NCBI GenBank assembly: GCA_964438425.1
Contig: CAYTKM010000002.1
Span: 92,495-156,494 of the forward strand
Source: an uncultured Gammaproteobacteria bacterium
Lineage (GTDB): Bacteria; Cyanobacteriota; Vampirovibrionia; LMEP-6097
Direction: 5' to 3'
DNA length: 64,000 bases
Part shown: positions 19,957 to 41,442 of the stretch, piece by piece
Layout of the letters: every line of letters starts with the position of its first letter
Position numbering within the stretch: position 1 is the first letter of the stretch
Made by a program: the position numbers and the translations under genes
Notes under the pieces: model-generated
What the model was told of the DNA's origin: nothing
What the model saw: the letters and a program-made list of their open reading frames with translations, nothing else
Database searches by the model: none

Positions 19957-20065
19957 TTTAGAATATTTTTCTAAAAAGCCTTCTGATTTAGAAATCTTTT
20001 CTAAATTTAAGTTGGATCTGTAAAATAATTCTAAAAATTAAGTAAATTTAGAAAATTATTATAAG
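19957..20065. repeat. array A: four TTTAGAA-N5-TTCTAAA palindromic boxes, 30-bp period
   Basis: Boxes start at 19957, 19987, 20017 and 20047; located between convergent mrp and flhA. Confidence 0.85.
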
Positions 20066-20266
20066 CTGCCCGGGCTTTGTATATCATAATTAGCAACAAT
20101 ATAATATATAGAATGTTTAATACTGTAATGGACAGTATTTCATCTTAGGCTGTTTAAGCCATCAAATACTTTATAATAAGGACTCGATGAAGGTTTTGAG
20201 CTTATTATATAAGTCTAAGTCCAAGAATCTACTAAGTGACTATATTAAATACTTTACTTTGAGATA

Positions 20267-22378
20267 TTAAGCTCCGCCAACAGCCGGGACATCCATCTCA
20301 GTACCGATGGTTTCCATAACTTGAATGTTAAAGTCAGCAGACAGCTCGGCATAACTTAAAATATGAATATGCGAATCGAACTGCTCGACTAATCTAAATA
20401 GTGGTAAACGCAGTGAAGGCCCACAAATCAATACTGGTCTTCTTTCAGCTTGCTCTAAAATCCTTCTAGAAGCATTACTAACCATAGTAACCAAGTTTTG
20501 GATTTGCTTAGGATCTAAGATTAACACCGTACTGTCATCAACTTTTTGAAGAGCTTGCTCCAGTCTGTTTTCCCAAGTCGGATGAAACGCCATCGCAGGT
20601 AAATGTCTATCTGGTGTGGCAAATTCTAAACAGATTTGACGACCTAAAGCGATACGCAGTTTTTCAGATAAACTGTCAGGATCTTTAATAGATACTGTCA
20701 AATCCTCTAATTTTTCTAAAATAAAGTGAATATCCCTGATACTTACTCTTTCTTTAAGTAAGTTAACAAACACCCTACGCAGGTCACCAAGTGAAATAGC
20801 ACCAGGTACTAAATTATCTACTAACTGCGAATCTGTCTGTTTAACTTGATCTAATACGCGACGCACATCAGACTTTTCGAGTAAATCATCAATATTACGA
20901 CGTACCACCTCAGCTAAATGCGCTGTAATTACACGAACTGCTGGCGCTGCTGGTCTATCCCAGTCAATCTGCTCTAGATAATCAGGGTCTACCCAATACG
21001 CGCCCTCTTGTAGAGCTGGCTCCCAGCCCTGGATCGAACCTGGTGGCGGCTCAGAGTAGATATTATCCCAGTCTTCTCTTAAAATAAGCATTTTCTCTGG
21101 ATAAATTTCAGCACTTGCTACGGTGGTATCTCGGATAATAACTCTGTATTCGTTGGAAGATAAACTTGGCGCGTCCATAATACGCACTGAAGGTAAGATG
21201 TAACCTAAGTTAAGAGTTAACTGATGTCGCAATGAAGCGATCTCGGGAACAAGCGTACCATTTTTGGCAGGATCAGCTATTTCAAGCAGTTCAGAACCTA
21301 CCCACACAGCAAGCTTATCTACTTCCAGTAAAGAGTACATCATCTCTGGCGTTGCACGCGGCGCGCCGCTAGCATCCACACTTTCATCAAGATCGATAGC
21401 TGTATCTAATTCGTCGTCTTCTTCTTGATCACCCTGCAAACGTTTATTAATTGTAAACGCTGCTACAGCTAGACCTAGTGAAGTAATGAACATCGGTACT
21501 TTAGGCATACCAGGTAAGACCCCTAAAATAAATAGTAAGATCGCACCAACCACAAAGGCATTAGGTCTAGCCAGTAACTGAGCTGCGATATCCTGACCGA
21601 ACGAATCAGCAGTCGAGCCAGCACGAGTTACGATGATACCAGTTGCGATCGAAAGTATCAGAGCTGGAATAGTTGCTGAAATTGAATCACCAATGGTTAA
21701 AATTATGTATTTTTGAGCTGCTTCAGGGAAAGCTAGACCCTTTTGAGTCATACCGATAGCGAGTCCTGCAACGATATTAATGATGGTAATAATAATACTT
21801 GCCATCGAGTCACCCTTAACGAACTTTGAAGCACCATCCATAGAACCGAAGAAAGCAGATTCTTTTTCAACTTCTTTACGTTTTTCTTTAGCTTGCTCAC
21901 TAGTAATCAAACCAGCATTAAAGTCAGCATCAATACTCATCTGTTTACCAGGCATCGCATCCAAGGTAAATCGCGCTGAGACCTCTGCTACACGCTCGGC
22001 ACCTTTGGTAATTACCATAAACTGTACTACTGTAATAATAATAAAGATGATAATACCAACGACAAAGTTACCACCTGCTACGAAATTTCCCATCGCGATA
22101 ATCAGATCCCCTGCAAAGCCATGCAGCAATATCGAACGGGTACTTGAGATATTCAAGGCTAGCCTGAACATGGTAGAAAGTAGTAAGAAAGTCGGTAAAC
22201 TGGCGAAATCAAGTGGTTTAGAAATGTAAAGTGAAATACCAATTGCGACAACAGCAAAGGTAATGTTTAAAGTAATAAAAACATCTAATAGGAATGGAGG
22301 TAGCGGGATGATAATAATCAGCAAAATACCGAAGATGATCGCTCCGACTAAAACTTCACTAATTTTTATATTACCCAT
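20267..22378 (-). CDS. flhA: flagellar export apparatus protein FlhA
   Basis: FHIPEP motif RVAEVSARFTLDAMPGKQMSIDAD, FFGSMDGASKFVKGD, LLKERVSIRD, LSYAEL. Confidence 0.93.
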   Translation of the reverse strand: MGNIKISEVLVGAIIFGILLIIIIPLPPFLLDVFITLNITFAVVAIGISLYISKPLDFASLPTFLLLSTMFRLALNISSTRSILLHGFAGDLIIAMGNFVAGGNFVVGIIIFIIITVVQFMVITKGAERVAEVSARFTLDAMPGKQMSIDADFNAGLITSEQAKEKRKEVEKESAFFGSMDGASKFVKGDSMASIIITIINIVAGLAIGMTQKGLAFPEAAQKYIILTIGDSISATIPALILSIATGIIVTRAGSTADSFGQDIAAQLLARPNAFVVGAILLFILGVLPGMPKVPMFITSLGLAVAAFTINKRLQGDQEEDDELDTAIDLDESVDASGAPRATPEMMYSLLEVDKLAVWVGSELLEIADPAKNGTLVPEIASLRHQLTLNLGYILPSVRIMDAPSLSSNEYRVIIRDTTVASAEIYPEKMLILREDWDNIYSEPPPGSIQGWEPALQEGAYWVDPDYLEQIDWDRPAAPAVRVITAHLAEVVRRNIDDLLEKSDVRRVLDQVKQTDSQLVDNLVPGAISLGDLRRVFVNLLKERVSIRDIHFILEKLEDLTVSIKDPDSLSEKLRIALGRQICLEFATPDRHLPAMAFHPTWENRLEQALQKVDDSTVLILDPKQIQNLVTMVSNASRRILEQAERRPVLICGPSLRLPLFRLVEQFDSHIHILSYAELSADFNIQVMETIGTEMDVPAVGGA

Positions 22379-22671
22379 ATCTAACTATTAATCCCTACTC
22401 TGCTAGCTTTAAAGCCATGTATCAAACCTAAATAAACTTATTAATGCTCTAAATAAATAACTTAATTTAAATGAATTATAAAATTTTTAATCTGATACCC
22501 ACAACTGCAAAGTATATTTACTATAGAAAGTACTTGTTAAGGGTAAATTAAGGGTTAGTTTATACAACTTTAACAAAAAACTCTTTTTTAAATTTATGTT
22601 TATTAGATAAAAATAAAAACCCATTTAAGTGTTTATATTTTGATGCTATTATCTTATTTTGGTGAATTTAG

Positions 22672-24918
22672 ATGAGTAAAGTATCAAAAGCTACTGGAGG
22701 TTTTGGTTTTAGCAAGATTTCTTCAAAAAAGAAATCAAAGGAAGTTCAAGCTGCTAGTAGTAAAGTTAATGAAGCTTCAGATCTTAAAAAATCGCAGCTG
22801 CACCAAAAACCTATCTCAACAGTTCAAAAAAAGAAGTTAAATAATTTAAATGCAGCAAGCTCTAATGCTCATCAATATGTAAAACAACATGAAACAACAT
22901 TAAATGAAATTACTAGATTATTAAATTTCACTGCTGACAAGACTAATAGAGATTTTGAATTCAATGAAAGCCTGCTTGATGAAAAATTAAAGCTATTTAC
23001 AGCACTTTTAAATAGCATTATTGACCATGATGGTCTAGTTAGTACTTTAAAAGAAATAAATTTAAACCAAGATAAGCAAAGTCTACTTGAATTAAAAAAA
23101 CAGGCAATAGATTTATTGTTAAAAAATAATTCAGGTAATGCTCTTGATTTAAATAAAACGAAAAATAAGCTAATTAATAGTGATGAAAAATTTTGGCAGA
23201 AAGTAAATCAGTACTTCATAAATTTTGAACCTAAAATAGATCAGTTAATAAGTGATTACCGTGCTAGTGAGATTTATAAAACCACAAGTTTAAATCCTGA
23301 GTTTGACATGCCAAGCTATTTATTAAAGCAAAGCGCAAAAAATACTTTAAAGCTATATAAACCTTTGTTTCAAGCCTTAAATGTTATCGATAGAAGAGTC
23401 TTAAATGTAAATTTCAATACTCAGGAGCTAACATTAGAAAGTCAAGCTCAAGATTTTCTTCATTTATTAGGAGATTACATTAACAGAAATATTTTAAGAA
23501 CGCAACTCGAGCTTTTTAATAAACAAATGAATGGGAGTAGAGATTTAAAAAAAGCGGTTGAAGATAGAAAAGTAGTTTTAGATCTTAATAACAAAGAGGT
23601 AACAATGAGCTTGGGTAGTTCTTTAAAAAACTTAAGTAGATTTTTAAATCAAGATATCTTTAAAGCTAAAATTAACAGTCCAAGTTCTTTAGATAAAAAC
23701 ATAGTCGATATTAACAACTACGTAAATAATATGAGCGATGAAGATCAAAATATAGTGATTGATTTTCTTAACTTTAAACTATTTTTAAATGATATTTATG
23801 CAAGGAATATACAACATGTTAAAAAGAATATAGTTTTACCTGACTATGGCGCCGTTAAACTAAAAGAAAATTTAGGAGATGATAAAGCGTTTTTAGAATT
23901 GAAATTTACTAAACTGAGCTTCGAGCTTGATAATATACCAGATTTAAAAGATATTAAAGAGCACTTTCATAAAAAATATATTAAAGAGATAACTAAAAAT
24001 TATAATGGCTTAATTAAAGAGCAGGCCAAAGACAACATGCTTAATCCTGATTGGCATGATATTGATACTGAGATAATAACTTTAAGTGACGATTTTTCTT
24101 TTATTAACAGTAGAATAGCTAATTTATATAATGCTTACAGTAATCAATACGCGCCGCCTCATATTATAGACACTATCATCGAAAATGATAAAATTAGTAC
24201 CTTAGATTTTGAAAAAGAGAGTACACGTGATAAGCTGGCAGGCGGAGATTTTGTGGCTTTAACTGGCTTTGGTGAATATAATGAAAAACGCACAGAGATA
24301 GCTTTAAGGCAGCTACTAGAAAATTCAAGTGCCTCAGATATTAGCCAGAGAAATAGCCCTATTCAAGTGACAGGAGTCATTCAAGGGCAAAAGAATCAGG
24401 CACTAGATAATGATGCTTTGATTGATTTTTTAGTAAAGGTTAAGCTCGACTATTCAAAAATAGCTACTGATAAAAATAAGACTAAAGCAGTTTTAAAGTT
24501 ACCTGAAACTGAAGAATACATTATTCCATTGCAGGTGAAATCATCGCCAGGGGAAGCAAATAATGTGAAGATAGCTGAAGAGCCATATTCAGTCGGATTT
24601 TCACCATTTAATATGAATTTGGTATCAGAAAAAAGAATAGTACCTAATTTTTTAAAACTTACTGACGGTACTATCAAAGATATGGGTGAAAAAGAAATTT
24701 CATTTCCATTAGCTAAAGACCAGCTCTTACAAACTATTGAAGCAGAGATAAAAGATGGCAGCTATGCTAAGCATTTTAAGCAAGCTGACTTGCTAAAGGA
24801 CTGGGATAAATTAGTGAAAGGTTTGCCAGGTTCAGGGACTCAAAAGAATTATAAAGTGATAGCTGATACCCTAGAGGGGCGCAGGTTAGAAGCTAAATTG
24901 TTTCAGTATTTTGTATAG
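22672..24918 (+). CDS. hypothetical protein, Lys/Asn-rich
   Basis: 748-aa ORF with N-terminal GGFGFSKISSKKK; no recognised domain. Confidence 0.75.
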   Translation: MSKVSKATGGFGFSKISSKKKSKEVQAASSKVNEASDLKKSQLHQKPISTVQKKKLNNLNAASSNAHQYVKQHETTLNEITRLLNFTADKTNRDFEFNESLLDEKLKLFTALLNSIIDHDGLVSTLKEINLNQDKQSLLELKKQAIDLLLKNNSGNALDLNKTKNKLINSDEKFWQKVNQYFINFEPKIDQLISDYRASEIYKTTSLNPEFDMPSYLLKQSAKNTLKLYKPLFQALNVIDRRVLNVNFNTQELTLESQAQDFLHLLGDYINRNILRTQLELFNKQMNGSRDLKKAVEDRKVVLDLNNKEVTMSLGSSLKNLSRFLNQDIFKAKINSPSSLDKNIVDINNYVNNMSDEDQNIVIDFLNFKLFLNDIYARNIQHVKKNIVLPDYGAVKLKENLGDDKAFLELKFTKLSFELDNIPDLKDIKEHFHKKYIKEITKNYNGLIKEQAKDNMLNPDWHDIDTEIITLSDDFSFINSRIANLYNAYSNQYAPPHIIDTIIENDKISTLDFEKESTRDKLAGGDFVALTGFGEYNEKRTEIALRQLLENSSASDISQRNSPIQVTGVIQGQKNQALDNDALIDFLVKVKLDYSKIATDKNKTKAVLKLPETEEYIIPLQVKSSPGEANNVKIAEEPYSVGFSPFNMNLVSEKRIVPNFLKLTDGTIKDMGEKEISFPLAKDQLLQTIEAEIKDGSYAKHFKQADLLKDWDKLVKGLPGSGTQKNYKVIADTLEGRRLEAKLFQYFV

Positions 24919-25099
24919 AATGACTCTATTTTAATTATTCAGGCGCTTAGTGAAACTACAGTTTACTTGAAACTCGCTTGGCTAATTATTTTTAAACACT
25001 AATTAAAAATTTAATTTTGTCGCTTGCACTATTGTGATATCCTAAAGCTGTCTTATAATATCAGTATAAGATAGCTTCTAATTAAAGTTAAATTTTTCT

Positions 25100-26032
25100 A
25101 TGAAATTAGCCATTATTAAAAATCGTCAAATCTGCTTTATAGCTACCGCAGTTATTTTATTACTAGCAGTATTTTTTATGATTCAGTCCAGTCTGAAATA
25201 TGGCTCGATTGTAAAACTTGGTTTAGATTTCACTGGTGGCAGTAAGATAGAGTACGTAGTTCCAGAAAAAGACCCTGCTAAAGTGAATTCAGAAGTGATA
25301 CTTGGTGTTTTAAGTGATCTAGAACTTAATAACTCGCAAGTGCAAGTCGCTCCTACTGCTAAAGATTCTACTTTGATAGTTAGAACTAAAGCTATTTCTG
25401 ATGATCCAGTTTTAGAAAAATTCAACCGAGCTTTAAGAGCTAAGTATGGTTCTTATAAGTTAGTATCGATCGATACTGTCAGCCCTATTTTAGGTCCAGA
25501 ACTGTTTTCAAGTGGTATAACTGCTTTAATCGTAACTATACTTGCGATTATAGTTTATATCTCGATTAAATTTAACCGTGAATATGCCTGCGCGGCTATC
25601 GCAGCGCTAGTTCATGATGTACTAGTAGTAATAGGCTTGTATGCCTATTTAGGTGTTTATCATGGCATCGAAGTGAATAGCTTGTTTATTACAGCTGTGC
25701 TAACAATTTTCGGTTTTTCAGTGCACGATACTATAGTTGTATTTGATAGAATACGTGAAAATCAGCGCTTGCAGACTAAAAACTTTAGTTTCACCGAGGT
25801 GGCTGAACTTAGTATCAATCAAGTCTACACGCGTAGTTTAAATACATCTATAACCACTTTAACTGTGCTGGGTTGTTTATTTTTATTTGGTGGTAGCACC
25901 ACCACTTTGTTTGTTGGTGCGCTGTTCGTTGGGATGCTTGCTGGTACTTATAGTAGTATTTTCCTTGCAAGTCCGCTGCTAGTGGAGATTAAACGAGCTG
26001 GTTTTTTAAAGAAATCAGTTAAAGCTAACTAA
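25100..26032 (+). CDS. secF: protein translocase subunit SecF
   Basis: LGLDFTGGS, VSPILGPEL, ALVHDV, GFSVHDTIVVFDRIREN, RSLNTSITT, GTYSSIFLA. Confidence 0.96.
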   Translation: MKLAIIKNRQICFIATAVILLLAVFFMIQSSLKYGSIVKLGLDFTGGSKIEYVVPEKDPAKVNSEVILGVLSDLELNNSQVQVAPTAKDSTLIVRTKAISDDPVLEKFNRALRAKYGSYKLVSIDTVSPILGPELFSSGITALIVTILAIIVYISIKFNREYACAAIAALVHDVLVVIGLYAYLGVYHGIEVNSLFITAVLTIFGFSVHDTIVVFDRIRENQRLQTKNFSFTEVAELSINQVYTRSLNTSITTLTVLGCLFLFGGSTTTLFVGALFVGMLAGTYSSIFLASPLLVEIKRAGFLKKSVKAN

Positions 26033-26210
26033 AAACTAATCCAATCATTAAATCTAATCACTTAGGCATATTATGTGGTTAGTAGCTGTTTTTAAAAATG
26101 TCTACATGCTTCTTTTTAGGTGTCTTAGTTATTTAGATTTTTAATGTAAAGCTTGTTAAATTACCATTTTGCTTTTTAAGTTCTATTCTACTAAACTGAC
26201 AATATTTAAA

Positions 26211-26319
26211 TTTAGAAGTTTTTTATAAAAAGTGATTTTAATTATAGAAATATTCTAAAAAAGACCCTAATTTAGAATATTTCTCTAGTTTTAAAGCAAA
26301 TTTAGAAAGTTTTTATAAA
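26211..26319. repeat. array B: four TTTAGAA-N5-TT(C/A)TAAA boxes, 30-bp period
   Basis: Boxes start at 26211, 26241, 26271 and 26301; located between convergent secF and the RHH gene. Confidence 0.8.
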
Positions 26320-26405
26320 TTATTTTAGACTTAGTAGCTTTTAGGCTGGCTTTTTTATATAGATTGCTAGATCTATATGTTCCTACTAATAAAAAATTTA
26401 CTCTC

Positions 26406-26458
26406 AAAAATAAAAAATGATATCAAGTACCCTTTGAACTCGATATCATTTTATTTTT
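26406..26458. terminator. hairpin, probable terminator between convergent genes
   Basis: AAAATGATATC...GATATCATTTT inverted repeat flanked by A and T runs. Confidence 0.55.
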
Positions 26459-26498
26459 AAAGCTTACCTAAAATGTTAGCTCAGTATGATAGATAAAC

Positions 26499-26753
26499 TT
26501 ATCTTTCTGAAGCTACTAGGTCGCGATTGCTAGCAATGCTTTGAGCAGCTGCGCTAGGTGCAACATTTAAATTATTTTTATAGTCGCGGGCCCATCTTTC
26601 AAGAACCTCTGCCTGGCTTAAACCGTTTTCAACTGCAATAGTTTTAATGATGCTTAAAGCTTCTGGACTTAATCTGAATGAAACCATAGTCTTAGCTTCG
26701 CCATAACGTGGCTTAGGACCGGTTTTCTTTCTGGTAATAGTTTTTTCTGTCAT
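26499..26753 (-). CDS. small ribbon-helix-helix (CopG-like) DNA-binding protein
   Basis: GPKPRYGEAKTMVSFRLSPEA...IA.ENGLSQAEVLERWAR fits the beta-alpha-alpha RHH pattern. Confidence 0.7.
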   Translation of the reverse strand: MTEKTITRKKTGPKPRYGEAKTMVSFRLSPEALSIIKTIAVENGLSQAEVLERWARDYKNNLNVAPSAAAQSIASNRDLVASER

Positions 26754-27141
26754 AATTTATTCCCCTCTTGTCGAATTTATATTATATATTTACTATTTCA
26801 GGATTATGATAGTATTAATAAATTGCAAAAATTTATCTAAATATGTTAGATAAACAAATGTTAACTTATCAATACAAATCCTCTTGTAATAAATATACAA
26901 CTTAATTATGTATTTTGTAAAGACTTTTTAGGGAATTTATGACAAATATATAAAGAAATTGAGAAAAATTTTTTGATAATAAATTTGAAAAGTTTTTACA
27001 AATCTTTTATCAGATGTAAATTTGTTGGAATTTGCAGGTAACTAGATACAGTGAGTATTTAGTTACACCTTGCTAAATTAACTGAAATTAAAAGCCTATA
27101 ACCTTTAACCTTTGTGTTTAAACTTAAATAGCTTAAATTTT

Positions 27142-31101: not shown

Positions 31102-31168
31102 GTTTAGTTCTAAAATTTCTGCTTTTTAAGTTTTGTATTAACTGCTATTCAGTTTGAAGATATCTTTG

Positions 31169-34100
31169 CTAAGATCCGAACCCCTTAGCTGGTTTTTTCT
31201 TTTTCATATTAGATCTATTTAAAATACTATCGAAACTTTTAGAGGTTTTCTGCTTAGTTTTACCTGTACCTGAGACTTTACCATTTGTTTCCAGGTCTAC
31301 TAGATCATTAATCAAGCTTAAATTTTCCATAGCTACTCTAGAAAGAATTGTATTTGCCGTATCTCTGTAATCCATTTCTACTGAATTTAATTTAGGTGAA
31401 TCAAAAACAAAGCTAGTTGATTTATCTATATTGGTAAGACTGCGGTAATTTTTTAAGCTAGCTCGATATTTAGGCTCAACTAGGGCCCTATTTTTAATAG
31501 TTTTGATAAGATCATTAATTTCATAATGACTTATAGCATCAAAAAGCTCCATAAATTCAGCTACTGGATTGTCTGTCTCTTTAGAAGTTTGAGCTATTAC
31601 TTCCTTGTATTTGGCATGAAGCTTGGTTATATCTTCAACATTTGGAGCTGACGAACCATTAGCTAAAAGTAGCTTTTGAACAGTTAGTTTATACCAGCTG
31701 TCTAAAAAATTATTTTCAGAATATTTAGCTTGGGAATCAAAATCTGCGTATTTTTCTATGATTTGTTTAGGTTTCCACGCGCTAGAGGAAATGGAATTTT
31801 GCTGGATATCTGCAATCTCTTTTAGGACTTCAATATCACTACTGTAATTGCTGTCTGAAGATGATTCAAGACCTTTTGCTAGGCTTAAAACCATATTATG
31901 GTTATCAAGGTTTGCAGTTGTTACTTTACTAGTACCATGATCTATTTGAAATAAAAACTTTTGAAATATCAGTGAAATGGATTTTAATTCTAAAGCTTTA
32001 CTATCAAACTTATATTCTTTCAAATTATTATTAGTATCTAAATATTTAAACACTGTACCCGCTTCAAGCATCTTTTGGTACTCTGGTGCTCCCGCGGAAT
32101 GTTCTTTTAACTTAGACTGATTCATAAGCTTTAATGGTCTTATGCGAGTAAGTTTACGCTCAAATTCTTCTGTTAGTAAATTTTTTTTCCTAAGATTTTC
32201 TGTTTGCTGATCTATTAAGTCTAAAGTTAACTTAGTAAGTTTATTATATTTTAGATTATTGTAGAAAGAAGCTAAAGATATTAATGCCGAAACTTTTTTA
32301 ATCGGATCAGCCTGAGAGTGATAGTTTTCTTCAAGTAAATACTGATGGAAGTCATTGCTGCTATATTGATCTAAACTATCATCTGCGATGCTATCAGTTT
32401 TATATATATTAGAGATTAGTGAAGGTACAGTTAGTTTAATCAGATTTTCACGTAATGTCTGCATGCTACCATCATCATTTATAGGGCTTTCTTTTAGTGT
32501 TAGGTATTCTTTGATAGTCATTTTTAGAGCTGCCTGATAGTCATATTCTTCAGCAAGCAGATTTCCTAAACTCATTATTTCTTCTTTTGGATTAAAGTTT
32601 TGACGAGTGTAAATGGCTAGCTCAGATTCGACTTCTAAGTTAGTTTCTGGGATCTTTTTACTAACCATATTTTTATTACTACTCGCTGAAGCAGGGTTTA
32701 GGTTTGAAGCTTTAGAAAGATTGTTTGCGCTATCAGCTACAGTTATATCCTGAGTCAAAGGTCTATAGACTTTTTCTATTAGGTTGGCATCATCTTTAAA
32801 AGTGTCTTTTAGTCCTTCTAAAGCATAAACTAATTGACTTTGATATTCATCAATAGCCGTATCAGGTTGCTTGAAGACACTTTTAATAACATGGGCTAGT
32901 TCCAGATTAAACAAGTTATTAAATTTATCTCGTTTAGGTTCTACTATAGACTTTCGTAGATCATGCTGAATTTTAAAGAAGCGTGCTTCTTTCTCACTAA
33001 AAGATAAATCATTATTTTCAGCAACTTCATTAATTGTTAGGATTGCCTGTAAAATTCTCAAACCATCATAATTTTCCTGATTATTTTTAGCCGTAGAGCT
33101 TTGGAAACCAAGAACCTTTTTAACTGATGATGCCTGGTCTTGGTGAGCCTGCAAAAGACCATCGATAGTTTGTTTAATTTTACTTAGCTGTATATTTAAT
33201 AGTTCAGCTTCCTGTGGATTAGTGCCTTCGGCTTGCTTGGCTCTAAACTTTACTAGAGTACTAACAGTTTCTTTAAAAAGTTTGTAATGATTGATACTAA
33301 GATTTTTTAGCTTGATATTTTCACTACTTCTATCTAAAAACATATAAGGTGAACTATTTGCTAATTTTGAATTAGGCTGAGTGGAATCTTTTCGCCCTAA
33401 TTCTTCGCTTAATTTCTGAGCTCTTGCTATTAAAATGTTAGTTTCTTTAAATAACTTTTGGTTATTTGTTTTAAGTAAATCCACTAATTTATTGATATTT
33501 TCTTGATTAGACCCATGCTCCCTACTTTGCACATGTTCGATAAATTTTTCTGTAAGATTAAAACAGTCTTGTTTTATGATAATAAGTCTATCGTATCTAC
33601 TAAGGTTTTCTTCCTTGGAGCTGCTAGCTGGCATGGCTAGATGCTCGCTCATGATAAGCTTTTCAAGTTTAATAATAGCTTTAATTTTGTCGATTTTAAA
33701 GCCAGATCTAGCAAGAGTGTTTTCTAGTAAATACTGATAATATTTGCTGCTAGAATCATTAAAAAGCTCTTGAGAGCTAATATTTCTCTGATTACCGTCA
33801 TTTAAGTCTGATAATAAAAGTTCTATCTGTCTAGAACAATACTTACTAAATAGATCTAAGCGAGTAGACTGTATATTTTCCTTTATGTTTTTAAAAATAT
33901 CAACTTCATTATTTGATGTAGGTAAGCCATAAGCATCGTTAAAAGCCTGGTTAATACTCGTAATATCAGTTTTATAAGCTGCCTGAGTTTTACTTATATT
34001 TAAGTCATCGCTAATAGTTATTTTGCGTTCAGGGTCAACCGCTTCATTTTCATTTAAAACTTCACCAGTAGTTAAAATATTTTCTGAATTATCAGACTCT

Positions 34101-36979
34101 TGTGTAGCCTTTAGCTTATTTATAGTCTCAAGTTGACTTGAGTTTTCTAGCGTGGCACTATCAACCTCGGAAAAGTATTCTTTTTCATCGCCTGTATTAT
34201 TGAGTAAGTAAGGTTCGATATGGTCGCGATAAATAATACCATTGTCTGCTAATTCAAGTCGCATATTGTTATGAAATTCGACTTCTAAAGTGCTATTTAA
34301 GGTTTCATATAGTTCTGGCTCTAGATTTAAAGCTACTTCAGAGATTTTATTTATGCCAGCTTGAAACACTTTTAATCTGTCGCTACCAGTATGTGGACTC
34401 ATTTTATAACTTAGATCAAAAAAGGCATTAGTCATTAGCTTAATATAGCTAAGCGCACTTTGGGCTTGGTTAAAATTTTTAGTTTCTTTAGCTTGCTTAG
34501 CGTTAAGAGCAGCCTGCTTAATATTTTGGCTGACTTTTAAGAGTTTTGCTTGGTAGCTCTCGTTTTTAAGCTGACCTATCAAGCGACTAATCGATAATTT
34601 ATCTGTTAGAGGTAGCTTTACTAGATTTACACCATCTGCTTCAAGGTAAGTCAGTTTGTATTTTGGTCGCTGATCTTCAGGGTGAACCTCACTTAAAGCT
34701 GTATTTTGCTTTTCGATGCACTCTTGTACGTTAGCTAAAGCGCGCGCGCTATATTTAGATTCGAAAATAGTATCTTTAATCAGTTTTTTTGTTTTAGGAT
34801 CTGTTTTAAGTAAGGTAATATCTGCGCGCATAGCAGGTGGTTTATCTTCAGCAGGGTTGCCTGGAATGATGCACATCTGGGATTGAACGTTATGTGGGGT
34901 CTCAGGGTTTAAAGCTGAAGTTAAGGCTAGGGTTAGGGTTTCTGCTGCGTAGCCTTTAGCAAAGGTTACTTCACTGGCAACTTTATCTACTTCCTTAGCG
35001 CGCGCTTTGGTAGACTCTGGGCTTAAAGTAGATGCTTTAGATTTAAGTGGATTTTCTAATGGATTTGCTGATTTTGCTAAAGTGCTAGGTCTTAAAACGG
35101 TGCCCATCAAGTTAGCTACGTGTTTATTATTAAAAATTTTATCTGAGACACTTGATATTTTATTTTTAATCTTTGTTCGAGCTATTAAATCCAATGATTT
35201 AGGCAAGATGTTACTAGCTTTTTGTGACTTTTGGTAACTAATTGCTGGTCTGCTACTACCTACCCTTTGCTGCTCGCCATAAAATGTATCATCAGGAAAT
35301 GATAAGCCAGCTTTTTTGAAGGTCTCTTTTAAAGTATTAACTAAGCGCTGATAAGCTTTTGAGTTTAAAGATTTACCTTTAGGTAGGGTCTTTTTTAAAG
35401 TACTTTGAACTAAAAAGTATTCTTTTGTATGTTGGTGAAAATTAAGAATGTAGCTGATTGCCTTTAAGTTAGTTAAAGTATCTTTTTGTAGTCGATATTT
35501 ATCTATTAACTGCTTGGTGCCGTCCTGATCGCCAATATTTTTTAAACGAAGGTAATCATATTTAAACAAGCTTGCCATAAACTTGCCTTCAGTTCTATTA
35601 GTAAAATTTTCGGTTTTTAAACTGGCAGCTACTTGCAATTCACGTTCATAAAAAGCAGTTTTTAAGGCTTTTAAAGCACTCTGGTAAGCTGAGCCTGTAA
35701 GCTTGCTTTCATCATGACTGTATATTTCAAGCTCACCTGCTACCTTTTTAACTGTAACCGAGTCTAGAACTTGTTCTTGAGGATTATAGAATCTGAGATT
35801 AAAACTATTAGTACCCGAATTTTTAATACTTAAATCGAGGTAACGCTCGAAATCTAGTAATTTATTTTGGGGGTCGTCAGCTAGCTCCTCGATCATCCTT
35901 TGCAAGTCAAGATTATAAGAACTTAAATCTTGCTTAGAATATGAATTCTCAATTAAAACACTTCTACTGGCTTGAGACTTATTGATTTCAAGAGCACTTT
36001 TGTTTAGGTTTTCTGCTGTTTGTTTAGTTAGCGTGCCGATCAATTTTTTAATTTCGATCAGGTGTGCTTTTAGCCAATTGACTGATCTATCAGTCCCAAC
36101 AGCAGACAGGGCTTTATTAAATTCTGGTTCACTTTTAAAATTATAGTTAGTATTTAACTGAGTTTTAGGATGTTTTAGATAGTAAGCATAGATATTTTTT
36201 AAAGCTGGCACTAGATCTTGGAATTCTTTTTCTTGCGGGCTACTATCGGCAAGTTCTAGCTTTTGAAGAGCTTTAGTTAGCACCTGACGGTCTGTTTTAG
36301 TGTCACCATAAGTTTTACTAGCGAGATTAGTGCCAGACTTAAGTTTTTTAGCCGCTAAGATTTCACTTTCATCATTAAGCCTTAGTTCTTCTTTTATTGT
36401 AGGTACTAAAGGTGAAAAATAGCTGGGTAGTTTTTGTAAGCTGTTGCTGCCTGCTTGAATTTGATGATAGCTACCACTAGCTCTGTTTAATTTTAAAATA
36501 GTATTATCAATAAAATTTATAATGGATCTACTATCGTTGTTTTCTATGCTGTCAGTTAGTTTGACCAGAAAATTATCTTTTAACTTTAAATCTTTAGCTT
36601 GCGTGATGCCGCTGCGATAGTTATTTTCAAGACTTAAGTTCTCCATAGCAGCAAAAGACAGGATGAATTGTAAACGTGTATATTCATCATTATGTTCATT
36701 CCCGCGATTAGGGTAAACAGGCTTTTGAGCTAAAGTACTAGTAATATCTTTAATAGTTTTATCACTGCCAAGTGAGATTAGCTGACTTTTAAAGTCTTTT
36801 AGGATATTTATAATCTCGTCACTACCACTGAAACGATAAAAGCTAGCTATATTCTTTTGATTACTGTAATTAGTGCCAGTTTGCTGCTTTTTTTTCAGGG
36901 TTAAGTGCGGCTTTATCTGTTGATAGCCATGATAAGTGCTTTGAGCTGGATTATCCAAAGTAGTACTAGCTGTGCTCAT
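31169..36979 (-). CDS. giant hypothetical protein with possible central PD-(D/E)XK nuclease-like motif
   Basis: 1936-aa ORF containing KGYAAETL...MRADITL...IFESKY; C-terminal KKKKPAKGFGS. Confidence 0.75.
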   Translation of the reverse strand: MSTASTTLDNPAQSTYHGYQQIKPHLTLKKKQQTGTNYSNQKNIASFYRFSGSDEIINILKDFKSQLISLGSDKTIKDITSTLAQKPVYPNRGNEHNDEYTRLQFILSFAAMENLSLENNYRSGITQAKDLKLKDNFLVKLTDSIENNDSRSIINFIDNTILKLNRASGSYHQIQAGSNSLQKLPSYFSPLVPTIKEELRLNDESEILAAKKLKSGTNLASKTYGDTKTDRQVLTKALQKLELADSSPQEKEFQDLVPALKNIYAYYLKHPKTQLNTNYNFKSEPEFNKALSAVGTDRSVNWLKAHLIEIKKLIGTLTKQTAENLNKSALEINKSQASRSVLIENSYSKQDLSSYNLDLQRMIEELADDPQNKLLDFERYLDLSIKNSGTNSFNLRFYNPQEQVLDSVTVKKVAGELEIYSHDESKLTGSAYQSALKALKTAFYERELQVAASLKTENFTNRTEGKFMASLFKYDYLRLKNIGDQDGTKQLIDKYRLQKDTLTNLKAISYILNFHQHTKEYFLVQSTLKKTLPKGKSLNSKAYQRLVNTLKETFKKAGLSFPDDTFYGEQQRVGSSRPAISYQKSQKASNILPKSLDLIARTKIKNKISSVSDKIFNNKHVANLMGTVLRPSTLAKSANPLENPLKSKASTLSPESTKARAKEVDKVASEVTFAKGYAAETLTLALTSALNPETPHNVQSQMCIIPGNPAEDKPPAMRADITLLKTDPKTKKLIKDTIFESKYSARALANVQECIEKQNTALSEVHPEDQRPKYKLTYLEADGVNLVKLPLTDKLSISRLIGQLKNESYQAKLLKVSQNIKQAALNAKQAKETKNFNQAQSALSYIKLMTNAFFDLSYKMSPHTGSDRLKVFQAGINKISEVALNLEPELYETLNSTLEVEFHNNMRLELADNGIIYRDHIEPYLLNNTGDEKEYFSEVDSATLENSSQLETINKLKATQESDNSENILTTGEVLNENEAVDPERKITISDDLNISKTQAAYKTDITSINQAFNDAYGLPTSNNEVDIFKNIKENIQSTRLDLFSKYCSRQIELLLSDLNDGNQRNISSQELFNDSSSKYYQYLLENTLARSGFKIDKIKAIIKLEKLIMSEHLAMPASSSKEENLSRYDRLIIIKQDCFNLTEKFIEHVQSREHGSNQENINKLVDLLKTNNQKLFKETNILIARAQKLSEELGRKDSTQPNSKLANSSPYMFLDRSSENIKLKNLSINHYKLFKETVSTLVKFRAKQAEGTNPQEAELLNIQLSKIKQTIDGLLQAHQDQASSVKKVLGFQSSTAKNNQENYDGLRILQAILTINEVAENNDLSFSEKEARFFKIQHDLRKSIVEPKRDKFNNLFNLELAHVIKSVFKQPDTAIDEYQSQLVYALEGLKDTFKDDANLIEKVYRPLTQDITVADSANNLSKASNLNPASASSNKNMVSKKIPETNLEVESELAIYTRQNFNPKEEIMSLGNLLAEEYDYQAALKMTIKEYLTLKESPINDDGSMQTLRENLIKLTVPSLISNIYKTDSIADDSLDQYSSNDFHQYLLEENYHSQADPIKKVSALISLASFYNNLKYNKLTKLTLDLIDQQTENLRKKNLLTEEFERKLTRIRPLKLMNQSKLKEHSAGAPEYQKMLEAGTVFKYLDTNNNLKEYKFDSKALELKSISLIFQKFLFQIDHGTSKVTTANLDNHNMVLSLAKGLESSSDSNYSSDIEVLKEIADIQQNSISSSAWKPKQIIEKYADFDSQAKYSENNFLDSWYKLTVQKLLLANGSSAPNVEDITKLHAKYKEVIAQTSKETDNPVAEFMELFDAISHYEINDLIKTIKNRALVEPKYRASLKNYRSLTNIDKSTSFVFDSPKLNSVEMDYRDTANTILSRVAMENLSLINDLVDLETNGKVSGTGKTKQKTSKSFDSILNRSNMKKKKPAKGFGS

Positions 36980-37095
36980 AAGAAAAATTTAATCATATGA
37001 ATTGAACTTTAATTATAAAGAAATTGAACTAAAAGTAGTGAAGGTGTTCTTATCTTTAAAAAAAGTTTAGCATATAATTTATAATTACGTATTAA

Positions 37096-38169
<1,074 letters not shown>

Positions 38170-38205
38170 TTTTTAACTAAGTCAGTTTTAAATTTAACTA
38201 TTTAT

Positions 38206-38236
38206 AAAAGCGAGCCTTACCCGGCTCGCTTTTTTT
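38206..38236 (+). terminator. rho-independent terminator after ilvC
   Basis: AAAAGCGAGCC-loop-GGCTCGCTTTTTTT. Confidence 0.88.
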
Positions 38237-38660
38237 GTAAAAATAATAGTCTATCTAAGGGGAGCTATTTACTGAAGCTGAAAATTAAGCTACTACTTTA
38301 AGATAATAATCTGCCAAGTTTTGTACTTTTTGGGAGTTGAAATAAGATATCACAGCATTGTATTAACTTTAAACGTTATTATATCGATTAGATATGGCTG
38401 TTTAGTTGTTTGTGGTTTTACGTAAGGTTTGCTATTAATGGGGCTACTATATTAAAAGGACTGACCGAGTATACTTTAAAATGTGTATATTAAGCTAAAA
38501 GCATAAAAAATATTCTATAAAAGTGATTTAATATCAATTTGAAAGCTGCCTGGTTAGTATTATTTATAAAAAATAAAGAGATCTTATATTCTAAATATTA
38601 TATGAAGAAATAATCTGTATCACACGATATATTCAAAATAATTGTATAATTTGCATTGTC

Positions 38661-39479
38661 GTGAAATCAATAAATACAAATTCAGGTAGTAATAGGTATA
38701 TTCCTATTAAGATTCCAGTAAATTACTCAGGTGAGTTAAAAAGACCTAAAAAATCTTCTTTAGACCATAATTCATTTAATAACAATAACCCTATAACTAA
38801 GGGTAGAGCAAGCAGACTAAAAGAAAAAGAGGAGGCATTAGCCCAGTCAGCAATAGAATACCGCTACTCAGACGAAGAATTAGCTTTTAGCCCTTTTTTA
38901 AACAGCACTGATACTTCTCAGCAGTATCATCGTAATTTATTCACTGTTAAACAGTCTATAAATAAAGATCAAAGTAGACAATTACTTCAGGATATACAAC
39001 AGAAAAAAACTAAGCTTATAAGCCTTCTTGATAAAAATAATTTAGAAAATACAAAAGATTCTAAAGGTATTGCTTATATAGACAAAATAGCTGATGAAGA
39101 TTTAGCTAGCATTGATGAAATTAATCAAAACTACAAAGCTAAATTTAATTCAGTAAAGCGTTACCAAGAGAAAAAGAACCAAGAATTTACTTTGTTTTCA
39201 TTAAAAGAGAATATTTTAAGAGCTAAAGATTACCGTGAGCTAATAGTTAGCTTTAAAAATCTTAAAGCTATGGCTTACGTTAACCTTAAACTAAAAATAG
39301 ATGAAACTAAGTTTGAACAATTTATGGTAGAAAATTTAAATGAATTGTTTAAGTTAGATATTTCTGATGCTCTTGATTTTAAAAATACCGAAGGCATTAA
39401 TTCTAGAATTTTAGTTGATGATTGGGCGAAAAATAAGTATAAAATGTCATTAAGACTAAAAACAGAAAATCTATTTTAA
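38661..39479 (+). CDS. hypothetical protein
   Basis: 272-aa Lys/Asn-rich ORF with GTG start. Confidence 0.65.
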   Translation: MKSINTNSGSNRYIPIKIPVNYSGELKRPKKSSLDHNSFNNNNPITKGRASRLKEKEEALAQSAIEYRYSDEELAFSPFLNSTDTSQQYHRNLFTVKQSINKDQSRQLLQDIQQKKTKLISLLDKNNLENTKDSKGIAYIDKIADEDLASIDEINQNYKAKFNSVKRYQEKKNQEFTLFSLKENILRAKDYRELIVSFKNLKAMAYVNLKLKIDETKFEQFMVENLNELFKLDISDALDFKNTEGINSRILVDDWAKNKYKMSLRLKTENLF

Positions 39480-39533
39480 GCATTTGAATATAAGCTTACA
39501 TACGAAGTTAATTTCATATTGTCTTGATGAAAC

Positions 39534-40511
39534 CTAATGTTCATCTTCACGGTAAGCATTTTCGATAGCAACTGCTAGCTTGCCGTTAACCTGACCTGAG
39601 CTACCTAAAAATTTTAGCTGGTTAGCTATCCAAATTTCAGCTCTGTCTTGGTATTTAGTATTCATCTTAATTACATCACCAACTTTGATATCTAAAGTAT
39701 CATTTAAATTCAACTCACCGCGAGCTAGAATGATTTTAATTGGTAACATGGTATTAGAAAGTTTTTGTACGATAACATCTTTAGAGTCACTGCTATCTAA
39801 TAAATGAGGGCTAAATGTTGATTGACGATTAAGTAAATTGATTACGTTTTCTAAAGCTGAGTGTGGGATACACAAGGTTACCAGCCCTAAATATGAACCG
39901 ATCTCAACATTAATCGTAACTAGCGCTACTATATCTGTAACTGGAGCGATTTGAATATTATTAGCTGCTGTTTCAAGTGTGTGCAATTCGACGGCACCGA
40001 TATTTTTAATAATCGTTTGCCAGCCTTCAGGCAGATAATACAAAATTCTCTTTAAAATATCTTTTGTTATACTATGCTCTACTTCACTGAGCTCATCTCT
40101 GAGACTGGATACACCCATACCACCTAGCATACGGTCTAACATGGCACCGATTAAATGTTTTTCTATACTAAAGCTGATCTGAGTTAGAAAAGGTTGCATA
40201 TTTAAAACTGCGGTATAGAGATCTTCTGACATGGTATTAACAAAATCACCGTAAGTTAGCTGTTGAACATTGGCTACATTAAATTCAGTATGTATACGTA
40301 GCAGACTATTAAGCGATAGTGAGACTTCCTTGCAAAATATTTCGTGGATATTACCAATAACCTTTAACTGCTCTTTATTAAATTTATCAGGGTTACGAAA
40401 ATTGTAATCTTTAACCTTGAATTGACTTTTAGTGCCAGCTTCAGGTAGCCCGTCAACTAAACGTTTTCGAGGTGCGGTGATTATTTTTTTGCTGTCGTTA
40501 TTATATTTCAA
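39534..40511 (-). CDS. fliM: flagellar motor switch protein FliM
   Basis: YNFRNPDKFNKEQL, LDRMLGG.G, LCIPHSALE, C-terminal SpoA domain (GDVIKM); downstream of fliL. Confidence 0.92.
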   Translation of the reverse strand: MKYNNDSKKIITAPRKRLVDGLPEAGTKSQFKVKDYNFRNPDKFNKEQLKVIGNIHEIFCKEVSLSLNSLLRIHTEFNVANVQQLTYGDFVNTMSEDLYTAVLNMQPFLTQISFSIEKHLIGAMLDRMLGGMGVSSLRDELSEVEHSITKDILKRILYYLPEGWQTIIKNIGAVELHTLETAANNIQIAPVTDIVALVTINVEIGSYLGLVTLCIPHSALENVINLLNRQSTFSPHLLDSSDSKDVIVQKLSNTMLPIKIILARGELNLNDTLDIKVGDVIKMNTKYQDRAEIWIANQLKFLGSSGQVNGKLAVAIENAYREDEH

Positions 40512-40694
40512 GGTTGTTTGTTTTTACTATTTATTAGGTTCGCTATCTTTGTTACATCCTAAAGTTATTCATTTTTATGTTTGATGCTTTTTGATTGTTT
40601 GACTTGTTTGCTTAGTTTGTATTTAAATATTGACTAACTTGTCTATTAAGCTCAGCTTCAAAGTTCAACTTTAGTTTCGTTAGTATTAGACTTG

Positions 40695-41234
40695 TTACTG
40701 AATTATAAAATCTGTAAAATATAGATCATAGATATGAAACTCTCCGTGCATTACATGATTTAAATTCTCTTTTAACTCCATTTTTAAAGCTAGTTTATTT
40801 TCGTATCCAACTACTTCTTCAGCTTTCTTGCGAGATAAAGTTGAGATGATTACATCTTTTACTGCTGGCATAACTGAGTGCAGGTCATGTTCGATCCTTA
40901 GCTCATATTCATGTTTAGCTTCTTCTTCAAGTTCAGCGTACTCTTCAAAATCTTCAGAATATAGTTTAGAAGTAATAGATACTTTTAAAAATCTAGAGCC
41001 AGTCATGTCAGCTAAATTAACTACAAAATCACCTAGCGGGTAGATGGGTAAATGATCATGCTCATTAGGTTCGCGCTGCTCTTCTACTGTTTGGTTTACA
41101 GTAATCATTTTAGGTACTAGTTTAAATGCCAGCATCACACCACCAAAGGCTGAAACAAAAACAAAAACTATAATTAGAACCATATTAGGTCCATTTGAGG
41201 TGACAACCGTAGCCGATCCAGTATCTTCTGCCAT
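40695..41234 (-). CDS. fliL: flagellar basal body-associated protein FliL
   Basis: Single N-terminal TM, FVVNLAD...RFLKV, VKDVII..LS.K, LYFTDFIIQ C-terminus. Start could be 41234 or 41252. Confidence 0.92.
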   Translation of the reverse strand: MAEDTGSATVVTSNGPNMVLIIVFVFVSAFGGVMLAFKLVPKMITVNQTVEEQREPNEHDHLPIYPLGDFVVNLADMTGSRFLKVSITSKLYSEDFEEYAELEEEAKHEYELRIEHDLHSVMPAVKDVIISTLSRKKAEEVVGYENKLALKMELKENLNHVMHGEFHIYDLYFTDFIIQ

Positions 41235-41333
41235 GTTATCTATATGCCACATACAATGTGATCTAGAATACAGCGTTTAATATAGTGTATACGGTTGATT
41301 TAGCTTATGGAAGCATGGCTACTACCCTGTAAA

Positions 41334-41442
41334 TTTATAAAAAATTTCTAAAAAAGTGCTAAATTTAGAAAAATATTCTAAAAAATGACAAAATTTAGAA
41401 TTAATTTCTAAATTTTGTAAAATCTGTAAAAAGTGTTTAAAA
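41334..41442. repeat. array C: four TTTA(G/T)AA-N5-TTCTAAA boxes, about 30-bp period
   Basis: Boxes at 41334, 41364, 41394 and a degenerate one at about 41423; located between the nadD stop and fliL start. Confidence 0.85.

Follow-up and report, generated by a model that had tools for sequence, protein, structure and literature searches.

Dispersed four-box palindrome arrays with a 30-bp period in the genome of an uncultured microbial-mat bacterium

Three intergenic loci in a 64,000-nucleotide stretch of DNA from an uncultured microbial-mat bacterium (the whole stretch analysed, here termed the window) each carry a row of four palindromes, which raises the question of what such arrays are and what keeps them in place. 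All three arrays of a preliminary description were found where it had put them (Table 1). Their boxes score 17-27 bits in the PWM, save for 8.2 bits in the last box of array 3. This weak box (41423), which follows a final step of 29 bp, carries a TCTGTAA variant half-site; the same variant forms the left half of the third box of array 1 (20017-20035), and its recurrence in two arrays had been described correctly. Matches to TTTAKAA-N5-TTMTAAA with at most one mismatch number 8 in the window against 1.03 expected, and 8 is reached in none of 100 shuffles.

Arrays 1 and 2 lie, as had been reported, between convergent genes. The former begins 15 bp past the stop of the Mrp-type gene and lies 201 bp off the flhA stop; the latter lies in the gap bounded by the stop codons of secF (26032) and of an 84-aa ORF (26499). 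Array 3 has minus-strand genes on both sides, with the stop of the cytidylyltransferase-like gene 71 bp upstream of it and the start of fliL 81 bp downstream.

Table 1. Arrays and adjoining genes, in window positions
Feature	Position	Strand	Boxes or family match	PWM bits in box order	End toward array
Array 1	19957..20065	.	19957-19975, 19987-20005, 20017-20035, 20047-20065	20.7, 21.4, 17.4, 19.6	
Array 2	26211..26319	.	at 26211, 26241, 26271, 26301	20.5, 16.6, 18.5, 23.5	
Array 3	41334..41441	.	at 41334, 41364, 41394, 41423	24.8, 26.7, 26.9, 8.2	
Mrp/NUBPL-type P-loop ATPase	18871..19941	+	PF10609, 5e-98		3' end, array 1
flhA (FHIPEP)	20267..22378	-	PF00771, 5e-223		3' end, array 1
secF	25100..26032	+	PF02355, 2e-54		3' end, array 2
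84-aa ORF P0001	26499..26753	-	weakly RHH-like		3' end, array 2
fliL	40695..41252	-	PF03748		start, array 3
Cytidylyltransferase-like gene	41513..42355	-	PF01467		3' end, array 3

Census and repeat unit

All results on the arrays come from one metagenome-assembled genome, 92.65% complete. The strict motif TTTAKAA-N5-TTMTAAA has 171 matches in it, and distances below 200 bp between neighbouring matches are confined to 30 bp (31 pairs), 60 bp (16), 90 bp (4), 59 or 61 bp (3) and 180 bp (1); the spacing peak at 30, 60 and 90 bp that had been predicted is therefore sharp. When the PWM is summed over three phased boxes, 369 positions exceed 10 bits, against 0 in the reversed genome. The final census comprises 137 arrays, with 0 in the reversed-sequence control. 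Clusters of four, also foreseen, account for 87 of these, the others having three boxes (36 arrays), two (4) or 5-16 (10). Outside arrays the motif occurs as 7 perfect sites, against 0-1 for control patterns. As the isolated motif barely exceeds its controls, the unit is the array and not the single box.

The repeat unit is 30 bp long, a 19-bp box (TTTAKAA-W5-TTMTAAA) followed by an 11-bp linker, and an array extends over about 110 bp. Across 348 units T3, A6, A7, T14 and A17 are conserved at 97-100%; the half-sites are near-invariant and 338 of the 348 linkers are unique. The earlier claim that half-sites are kept while linkers vary thus stands in that part, but it had also treated the N5 core as free, which it is not, at least 95% of core positions being A/T. 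The composition of the linker is W3-(G/C-enriched 5)-W3, and G/C within the unit is confined to positions 5, 15 and 23-27, which produces a 10-bp G/C phase. In the arrays, whose GC content is 14.8%, G/C reaches 61% at positions equal to 5 modulo 10 and at most 17% elsewhere, and their power at a period of 10 exceeds that of 880 control intergenic segments 3.6-fold. One diverged pair of duplicate arrays (87% identity) differs at none of 42 conserved half-site positions, against five changes in linkers and N5 cores within the same array, an argument for selection that comes from a single pair (n = 1). The TCTGTAA half-site makes up 16 of 1068 half-sites. No 6-mer is enriched more than about 3-fold in the array flanks, which are not conserved, and in comparisons of linkers between arrays the best pairs agree at 12 of 14 positions, near a rough (uncomputed) chance estimate.

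Placement and distribution

Almost all arrays (135 of 137) lie outside ORFs, two overlapping an ORF by more than 20 bp. They occupy 49 convergent, 74 tandem and 10 divergent gaps, with 4 at contig edges, whereas background gaps of at least 120 bp divide into 192 convergent, 577 tandem and 268 divergent by a crude, uncurated longest-ORF set, which underlies all these placement counts. The expected enrichment in convergent intergenic regions is thus present, along with a depletion of divergent ones (chi2 47.5, p 5e-11). Within tandem gaps, 48 of 74 arrays are closer to the upstream stop. The genes adjoining the largest arrays and the divergent-gap arrays are unrelated housekeeping genes. ORFs near the largest arrays include P0002, which is without a family, and the Gly/Met-rich P0003, which lies inside a flagellar cluster; they gave no lead to a binder and were not taken further as candidates.

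Along the chromosome the arrays are spaced more evenly than at random. Inter-array gaps below 5 kb number 9 (27 +/- 4 expected) and those of 8-30 kb number 94 (61 +/- 6 expected), and in both cases 0 of 2000 simulations were as extreme. The median gap is 15 kb, half of all gaps fall within 10-22 kb, and the distribution has a gamma shape of 1.98 (KS against exponential, p 6e-5). This even, non-random spacing is consistent with a role at the level of the chromosome. Orientation of the arrays by leave-one-out EM gave several near-equal optima, and a simple A-minus-T polarity was used instead; it weakly tracks the direction of transcription (p 0.0135). As to a link with replication, array polarity shows no relation to GC skew, which is positive throughout C1 and C2.

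The arrays are absent from the 40 relatives searched and from a collection of about 185,000 species genomes. G041, the closest relative found (FlhA 79% identical), has none even with 3 mismatches allowed, and 400 kb of it contain no enriched 6-Nx-6 palindrome of any sequence. An autocorrelation search, an insensitive method that recovered 7 period-30 loci in 400 kb of the array-bearing genome (G000), gave two period-30 loci in G041, both in repetitive sequence judged by eye to be coding. In the 400 kb compared, the two genes that flank an array also lie close together in G041 at only four loci, one of them clean, and one syntenic gene pair is separated by a 413-bp gap with an array in G000 and by about 65 bp in G041 (n = 1). 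A metagenome scan returned four matches, of which three are two-box chance matches on contigs of 19-20% GC; the fourth was rejected as an array, being a plain tandem repeat of identical units. The region itself was found in four sequencing runs, all from one microbial-mat sample, and the DNA contigs of these runs contain no variants of it. The RNA contigs listed leave arrays 1 and 2 uncovered, which carries no weight, since a gap in cover is no evidence and transcript ends are invisible in contigs. No description of such arrays was found in the literature searched, which covered main texts, for half-site words and for Melainabacteria with repeat terms.

Alternative explanations and known systems

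The alternative that survives best, although an unlikely one, is that the arrays are MITE-like non-autonomous mobile elements in which the four boxes would be transposase-binding sites. It draws on the presence of some 137 dispersed copies with one architecture and a modal size in a single lineage, and on the syntenic gap that is longer where it holds an array. A box-specific TCT-type half-site, which occurs in 48 of the 137 arrays, mostly as one inner half-site, hints at a master copy from which the arrays descend. The bias towards 3' ends would then stem from selection against promoter insertions. Close copies are depleted, and target immunity of the kind found in Mu, Tn7 and Tn3 transposition could also give even spacing. 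Against this, target-site duplications of 4-9 bp are not above a shuffled-pair control in 120 arrays (for k=6, 23 against 25.4 +/- 4.4), and neither the interior, with its unique linkers, nor the flanks are conserved. As to terminal inverted repeats, the array ends are trivially inverted, the end boxes themselves being palindromes, which speaks neither for nor against a MITE. The genome offers no matching transposase: self-blastn gives no high-copy IS, the sole IS found belongs to the IS3 family (rve) and has ends unrelated to the boxes, the Y1 transposase family (PF01797) has 0 matches, and a single DDE_Tnp_1 match belongs to a contaminant contig of high GC. Moreover, a dead element would lose its half-sites as its linkers became saturated, and host selection is therefore still needed if the arrays are MITE-like.

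It is distinctly less probable that the arrays act mechanically without a dedicated protein, in analogy to BIME-2, as strong gyrase-wrapping sites or intrinsically bent DNA in regions that accumulate positive supercoils. In E. coli a gyrase motif of 130 bp, in which G/C varies with a 10-bp phase, has been read as wrapped DNA, and BIME-2 elements are described as transcription-independent strong gyrase sites with a possible part in genome organization (PMC6379681). The arrays resemble such sites of about 130 bp in sequence (PMC6379681), being some 110 bp long and 85% A/T with G/C phased at exactly 10 bp, and they lie at 3' ends and between convergent genes. However, the near-100% conservation of specific bases listed above far exceeds what a bendability code needs, the strict 30-bp register and the count of four suggest a discrete oligomer, and the gyrase motif, as described in PMC6379681, is long and degenerate.

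A role at the RNA level, with arrays acting as bidirectional terminators or 3'-UTR stabilisers made of four weak stem-loops with a U-rich linker after each, would fit their location at gene 3' ends, the 7-bp inverted repeat and 5-nt loop of each box, the rarity of canonical terminators (about 5% of 3' ends in a crude scan, uninformative about arrays in that it is the same with or without them), the folding of whole arrays, which is somewhat better than that of shuffles (mean -16.6 against -10.1 kcal/mol, z -2.65), and the weak agreement of polarity with transcription. It is nevertheless very improbable because 236 of 445 boxes have a mismatch at the one stem position that varies, with an association opposite to pairing, box MFE is 0 in 55% of 522 boxes (median 0, mean -1.09 kcal/mol, 16% reaching -3), linkers 1 and 3 are not complementary (3.79 matches against 4.25 under the null), and symmetric conservation of both halves is needless where one strand alone is transcribed. 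At the variable positions, 5 and 15, the combinations GC, TC, GA and TA occur 176, 126, 110 and 33 times (odds ratio 0.42, p 1.3e-4). Boxes tend not to combine two weak halves, a pattern opposite to the covariation of a stem. The K and M positions thus act as independent half-site strengths and not as a stem, which is consistent with DNA-bound dimers. Intrinsic terminators were also rejected on the grounds of the low GC content of the arrays, the instability of the box hairpins and a terminator scan of array 1 that called none. Likewise CRISPR, which has identical repeats of at least 23 bp and unique spacers of similar length, does not correspond to 19-bp degenerate boxes with 11-bp composition-constrained linkers, in four units per locus at 137 loci.

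None of the known repeat families tested matches the arrays, in keeping with the preliminary description. BIME-1, or RIP, elements bind IHF. REPs and BIMEs are the nearest in outline, as short palindromic units in extragenic clusters of about 100 bp, which number in the hundreds and lie at the 3' ends of transcription units, with proposed roles in supercoiling and the nucleoid (PMC3733652, PMC4550694, PMC6379681). REPs are, however, G/C-rich stem-loops with a GTAG or CGTC tag (PMC3733652), alternating orientation and a RAYT gene, whereas the arrays have A/T-rich boxes in a direct 30-bp register, lack stem covariation and belong to a genome in which, at its 92.65% completeness, the Y1 (RAYT) transposase search was negative. 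Neither tag occurs in the array half-site spectrum (TTTAGAA, TTTATAA, ATTAGAA etc.).

Plasmid centromere arrays such as sopC and parC consist of tandem short repeats, some with dyad symmetry, that assemble a multi-dimer particle, and occur once per replicon next to par genes. The dRS3/NIME repeats of Neisseria are dispersed arrays of 20-bp palindromic repeats, which flank units of 50-150 bp and serve as integration targets. To our knowledge, none of these is built from a 19+11-bp unit, comes most often in fours or is evenly spaced along the whole chromosome.

The arrays share with Lrp/AsnC operators a regular spacing of palindromic boxes, each with an A/T centre, and for Lrp/AsnC proteins there is an octamer model with 30-bp spacing. 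Operators of the Ss-LrpB type are dimer-bound palindromic boxes with an A/T centre and the consensus TTGCAAAATTTGCAA; in that system three juxtaposed, regularly spaced sites are filled cooperatively, and the DNA is deformed and wrapped (PMC4046817). These operators are single promoter-proximal regions, whereas the arrays are 137 dispersed sites at 3' ends.

Candidate binders and a putative architectural role

An Lrp/AsnC protein was rejected as the binder, as PF01037 has 0 matches in the 92.65% complete genome, in a search that hits 11 of 14 control genomes. The preliminary description had pointed to iron control by Irr and to the RHH gene at 26499. The Irr element ICE of Bradyrhizobium and other alpha-proteobacteria (TTTAGAA-N3-TTCTAAA) does have identical 7-bp half-sites, but with a 3-bp spacer (PMC1698941), whilst the arrays are 7-N5-7 throughout; ICEs are also single sites in iron-gene promoters, whereas the arrays come in fours at gene ends, outside promoters, beside genes of all functional kinds. 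There are two Fur-family genes in the genome, and the divergent paralogue was set aside as binder, since 8 of 24 family relatives without arrays have orthologues of it. The Irr link is therefore not supported. Nor is P0001 favoured as the binder: its similarity to RHH_10 (E 0.0076) is under the cut-off, it has homologues in 22 of the 24 array-less family relatives, and the array sits at the 3' end of the ORF.

The reading preferred here, at a probability of about 0.55, is that the arrays are a lineage-specific, genome-wide set of some 137 putative landing pads for a DNA-binding protein, kept by selection. Of the earlier proposal that each is a pad for four dimers, the conservation pattern and the independence of the K and M positions are consistent with dimers, while none of the candidates proved to be the binder. 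From the sequence we infer protein binding, a stoichiometry of four dimers, DNA wrapping and the role that follows. Each 19-bp box would take one symmetric dimer, its conserved blocks (positions 2-7 and 13-18) lying 11 bp, or one helical turn, apart across the A/T-only centre, and the 30-bp period of about three turns would place up to four dimers on one face of the DNA. Since G/C is tolerated only at every tenth bp, the 110 bp or so should be anisotropically bendable, and the DNA could thus wrap a tetramer of dimers. Such particles would occupy the 3' ends of transcription units, most of all where two genes converge, and would lie at a distance from one another. Their role is most likely architectural, as a barrier or insulator, or as a docking point for topoisomerases at the meeting place of supercoils that transcription drives. 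After the lineage had split from the nearest relative found, a four-box unit was probably copied around the genome, and its half-sites were then, again probably, maintained by purifying selection.

A possible but doubtful extension of the landing-pad reading is an undescribed bacterial insulator-like system, in which a sequence-specific architectural protein, bound as four dimers per array, would wrap about 110 bp, mark where transcription units end and partition the chromosome into domains of some 10-30 kb, the system having arisen in a single genus-level lineage. The particles might then act as barriers to supercoils, or give topoisomerases or condensins a fixed place to dock.

REPs and BIMEs have long been suspected of shaping the nucleoid, although their hairpins and their link to RAYT transposases make it hard to tell function from selfish spread. 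The present family, in contrast, resembles pure protein operator logic, with symmetric half-sites, a free spacer, helical phasing and a count of four. Should the arrays instead prove to be mobile elements that possess target immunity, the lack of a recognisable transposase would make them unusual. If a binder exists, they would provide a clean, defined-sequence system for the study of domain boundaries or of supercoil handling between convergent genes, and would be a case in which such a system evolved de novo within a single lineage.

Arrays in the window and across the genome

The three window loci each carry four palindromic boxes of two 7-bp half-sites and an N5 core, separated by 11-bp linkers in a 30-bp register, and reading each locus confirmed the coordinates claimed for them in the preliminary description (Table). 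At up to one mismatch the motif has eight matches in the window against 1.03 expected, a number that none of 100 shuffles gets to. Arrays 1 and 2 do lie in convergent gaps, as had been claimed, the former between the genes for an Mrp/NUBPL-type ATPase and FlhA, the latter between that for SecF and P0001, an 84-aa ORF. Array 3 is flanked by two minus-strand genes; in their direction it comes directly after a cytidylyltransferase-like gene and before fliL. The sequence CCCGGG is scarce in the genome (24 copies, 5 of them intergenic), and three of the intergenic copies are found within 80 bp of an array.

All array results rest on one metagenome-assembled genome, obtained from a microbial-mat metagenome (2.78 Mb, 20 contigs, main contigs about 34% GC), in which the window corresponds to C2:92495-156494. 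The strict motif has 171 matches in this assembly, and distances below 200 bp between neighbours are almost only 30 (31 cases), 60 (16) or 90 bp (4), the genome-wide peak that the preliminary description had proposed looking for. When the scores of a box-derived PWM were added up over three phased positions, 369 positions exceeded a threshold of 10 bits, and none did in the reversed genome used as control. The resulting census comprises 137 arrays, of which 87 have four boxes, in keeping with the anticipated clusters of four, 36 have three, 4 have two and 10 have 5-16. The longer arrays are mostly two four-box arrays adjoining each other; that at C1:704078 arose by recent tandem amplification of a 60-bp, two-box unit. 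Outside arrays the motif hardly exceeds control patterns: there are seven perfect sites, against 0-1 for controls, and 30 sites with one mismatch, against 4-14 for five control patterns; several of these non-array sites proved on inspection to be overlooked arrays. It is the array, not the single box, that constitutes the family unit. We rate the family as a kind of dispersed extragenic repeat with an unusually operator-like logic and non-random spacing.

Table. Coordinates of the arrays and of other features of the assembly (C1-C20) and of its closest relative found
Feature	Position	Strand	Remarks
Array 1	window 19957/19987/20017/20047 (box starts)		four 19-bp palindromes, by sequence reading
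Array 2	window 26211/26241/26271/26301 (box starts)		four 19-bp palindromes, by sequence reading
Array 3	window 41334/41364/41394/41423 (box starts)		four 19-bp palindromes, by sequence reading
CCCGGG near arrays	window 20069-20074 (C2:112563); C1:190424; C1:418004
748-aa ORF	window 22672-24918	plus	no Pfam match
P0001, small RHH-like ORF	window 26499-26753	minus	Pfam RHH_10, E = 0.0076, below cut-off
1936-aa ORF	window 31169-36979	minus
IS3-family IS	C5:1-1190		rve domain, two overlapping frames
Recurring ends of this IS	C6 start; C8 end; C1:915126-915312; C6:105830-105949
DnaB helicase gene	C1:98037-99905		intein-bearing; adjoins one of the few divergent-gap arrays
Tandem paralogue cluster	C2:422000-429200		about 1 kb each, 75-91% identity
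Self-similar region, probably a giant repeat-protein gene	C6:131600-143100 (outside the window)		about 11.5 kb; many 60-bp offsets, about 71% identity
Leucine-rich-repeat gene family	C2 start; C3 end; C4:230571-231642; C7 end		copies at contig ends
Intergenic tandem repeats of the relative (G041)	its C1:135064-135280; C2:24731-24892; C2:112873-113044		common TCGCAATGAC-type core; periods 19, 22, 37 bp

Conservation within the repeated unit

A logo computed over 348 units of 30 bp reads TTTAKAA-W5-TTMTAAA, followed by W3, five G/C-enriched positions and W3. Conservation reaches 97-100% at T3, A6, A7, T14 and A17, and N5 is at least 95% A/T. G/C is essentially confined to unit positions 5, 15 and 23-27, and along a four-box array it amounts to 61% where the position equals 5 mod 10 and at most 17% elsewhere. 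At period 10, arrays exceed 880 control intergenic segments 3.6-fold in spectral power, and their GC content is 14.8%, as against 26.9% for intergenic DNA. Almost every linker is unique (338 of 348), and linkers resemble one another, between or within arrays, about as much as by chance, the chance level being a rough estimate rather than a computed control. The flanks of the arrays show no conserved sequence except one or two A/T positions.

The sole variable stem position, formed by positions 5 and 15, occurs as GC 176, TC 126, GA 110 and TA 33 times. Combinations that could pair show no excess, and T..A, in which both halves are weak, is under-represented (odds ratio 0.42, p = 1.3e-4), as would result from half-sites of independent strength of which at least one has to be good. 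Linker 1 shows no complementarity with linker 3, nor the N5 of box 1 with that of box 4, and therefore there is no long cruciform or MITE-type hairpin. Judged from these patterns, the conservation logic appears to be that of DNA-protein contact, not of a hairpin. Within a box, 11 bp separate the centres of the two conserved blocks, and the box period is 30 bp; dimers may thus sit on one DNA face, contacting successive major grooves, and four of them would be in helical register.

Two duplications contain arrays. The diverged pair C3:1-455 and C4:64929-65376 (array plus flank, 87% identity) is a single case in which all 42 conserved half-site positions are unchanged, whereas the array's linkers and N5 show five changes. 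The second involves C1:1-92 and C4:1-92. In both, homology between copies ends within about 14 bp of the outer array edge.

Placement, spacing and distribution

With genes called crudely as longest ORFs, 135 of the 137 arrays lie outside ORFs, with 49 in convergent, 74 in tandem and 10 in divergent gaps and 4 at contig edges. Background gaps of at least 120 bp number 192, 577 and 268, respectively (chi2 47.5, p = 5e-11 versus arrays), which bears out the suggested convergent enrichment; a previous count, made with 127 arrays, had agreed with this. The per-gap ratio, about 2:1:0.3, is the one expected if each 3' end bore a single element. Of the 74 arrays in tandem gaps, 48 are closer to the upstream stop. 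Genes of all kinds adjoin arrays (flagellar, biosynthetic, tRNA synthetase, LexA, sigma factors, DnaB, others). The A/T polarity of arrays tracks transcription direction weakly (p = 0.0135) and shows no correspondence with GC skew.

On 7 of the 10 main contigs there are 4.6-5.9 arrays per 100 kb; C6 (3.0) and C8 (3.8) have fewer, and C10 (41 kb, 38% GC) has none. Ten small contigs, C11-C20 (2.7-14 kb), have a GC content of 64-73%, against 32-35% for C1-C9, and are probably bin contamination; the sole DDE_Tnp_1 match of the assembly is on one of these, C19. Gaps between arrays have a median of 15.2 kb (interquartile range 10.3-21.6 kb). Only 9 are below 5 kb, against 27.6 +/- 4.2 and 26.8 +/- 4.2 under two nulls, and 94 fall between 8 and 30 kb, against about 61 +/- 6. 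One null drew on all intergenic gaps, weighted by type, and the other, stricter, on those that measure 100 bp or more after subtraction of the array; under both, neither count was reached in 2000 simulations. The distribution has a gamma shape of about 2 (KS versus exponential, p = 6e-5). Arrays thus show mutual avoidance on a scale of 5-8 kb.

The two-box pattern is absent from all 40 relatives searched (24 of the same family, 12 other genera) and from the genome_contigs collection, which may omit the window's own records; four metagenome matches were rejected as chance matches or plain tandem repeat. The nearest relative found via FlhA (G041; 79% identity, 2.2 Mb), followed in FlhA identity by Melainabacteria-type genomes with about 44%, has no arrays even allowing three mismatches. 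A motif-free scan of 400 kb of each genome recovers TTAGAA-N5-TTCTAA at 70-fold in the array-bearing genome and no enriched 6-Nx-6 palindrome in G041. At one syntenic gene pair the gap is 413 bp with an array, versus about 65 bp in G041.

The arrays, with their mutual avoidance, could also be a mobile element with target immunity, an unlikely reading. The sole IS seen, of the IS3 family, which interrupts the assembly where several contigs end, has termini unrelated to the boxes. Arrays of mobile origin could equally be under selection today.

Comparison with known systems and the putative role

Among known repeats, REP/BIME elements are like the arrays in copy number and 3' placement, but the arrays differ from them in the stem covariation test, in the lack of a GTAG/CGTC tag and in the lack of a RAYT gene in the genome. 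From MITEs they differ in the lack of target-site duplications, of a common interior sequence and of a cognate transposase. The Irr iron-control element shares the half-sites, but has an N3 spacer and a promoter location (PMC1698941), whereas the arrays have N5; of the 24 array-less family relatives, 8 possess orthologues of the divergent Fur paralogue, and the Irr/Fur link proposed earlier is not supported. Nor is P0001 supported as the binder suggested earlier: this single-copy ORF, covered by metatranscriptome contigs, has homologues of 61-76% identity in 22 of the 24 array-less family relatives, and array 2 adjoins its 3' end rather than its promoter. The closest mechanistic analogue is the phased, dimer-bound boxes with DNA wrapping of Lrp/AsnC (PMC4046817); no AsnC/Lrp gene was found in the genome.

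The arrays might instead be gyrase or bent-DNA sites acting independently of a dedicated protein. PMC6379681 describes a 130-bp gyrase motif with 10-bp G/C phasing, here seen over about 110 bp, and gyrase enrichment downstream of transcription units, with BIME-2 elements as strong sites, which the 3' placement of the arrays resembles; this reading is improbable. An RNA-level terminator or stabiliser, which 3' placement might suggest, is highly improbable, 55% of 522 boxes having no stable fold as RNA (mean -1.09 kcal/mol).

The most economical reading, to which we give a probability of roughly 0.55, is that the arrays are selected, putative landing pads on which four dimers of one protein would bend or wrap about 110 bp of DNA where transcription units end. 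The four-dimer pads proposed in the preliminary description are partly supported; binding, stoichiometry and function we infer. The role of the putative binder and its arrays is likely to be chromosome-architectural or in the handling of supercoils.
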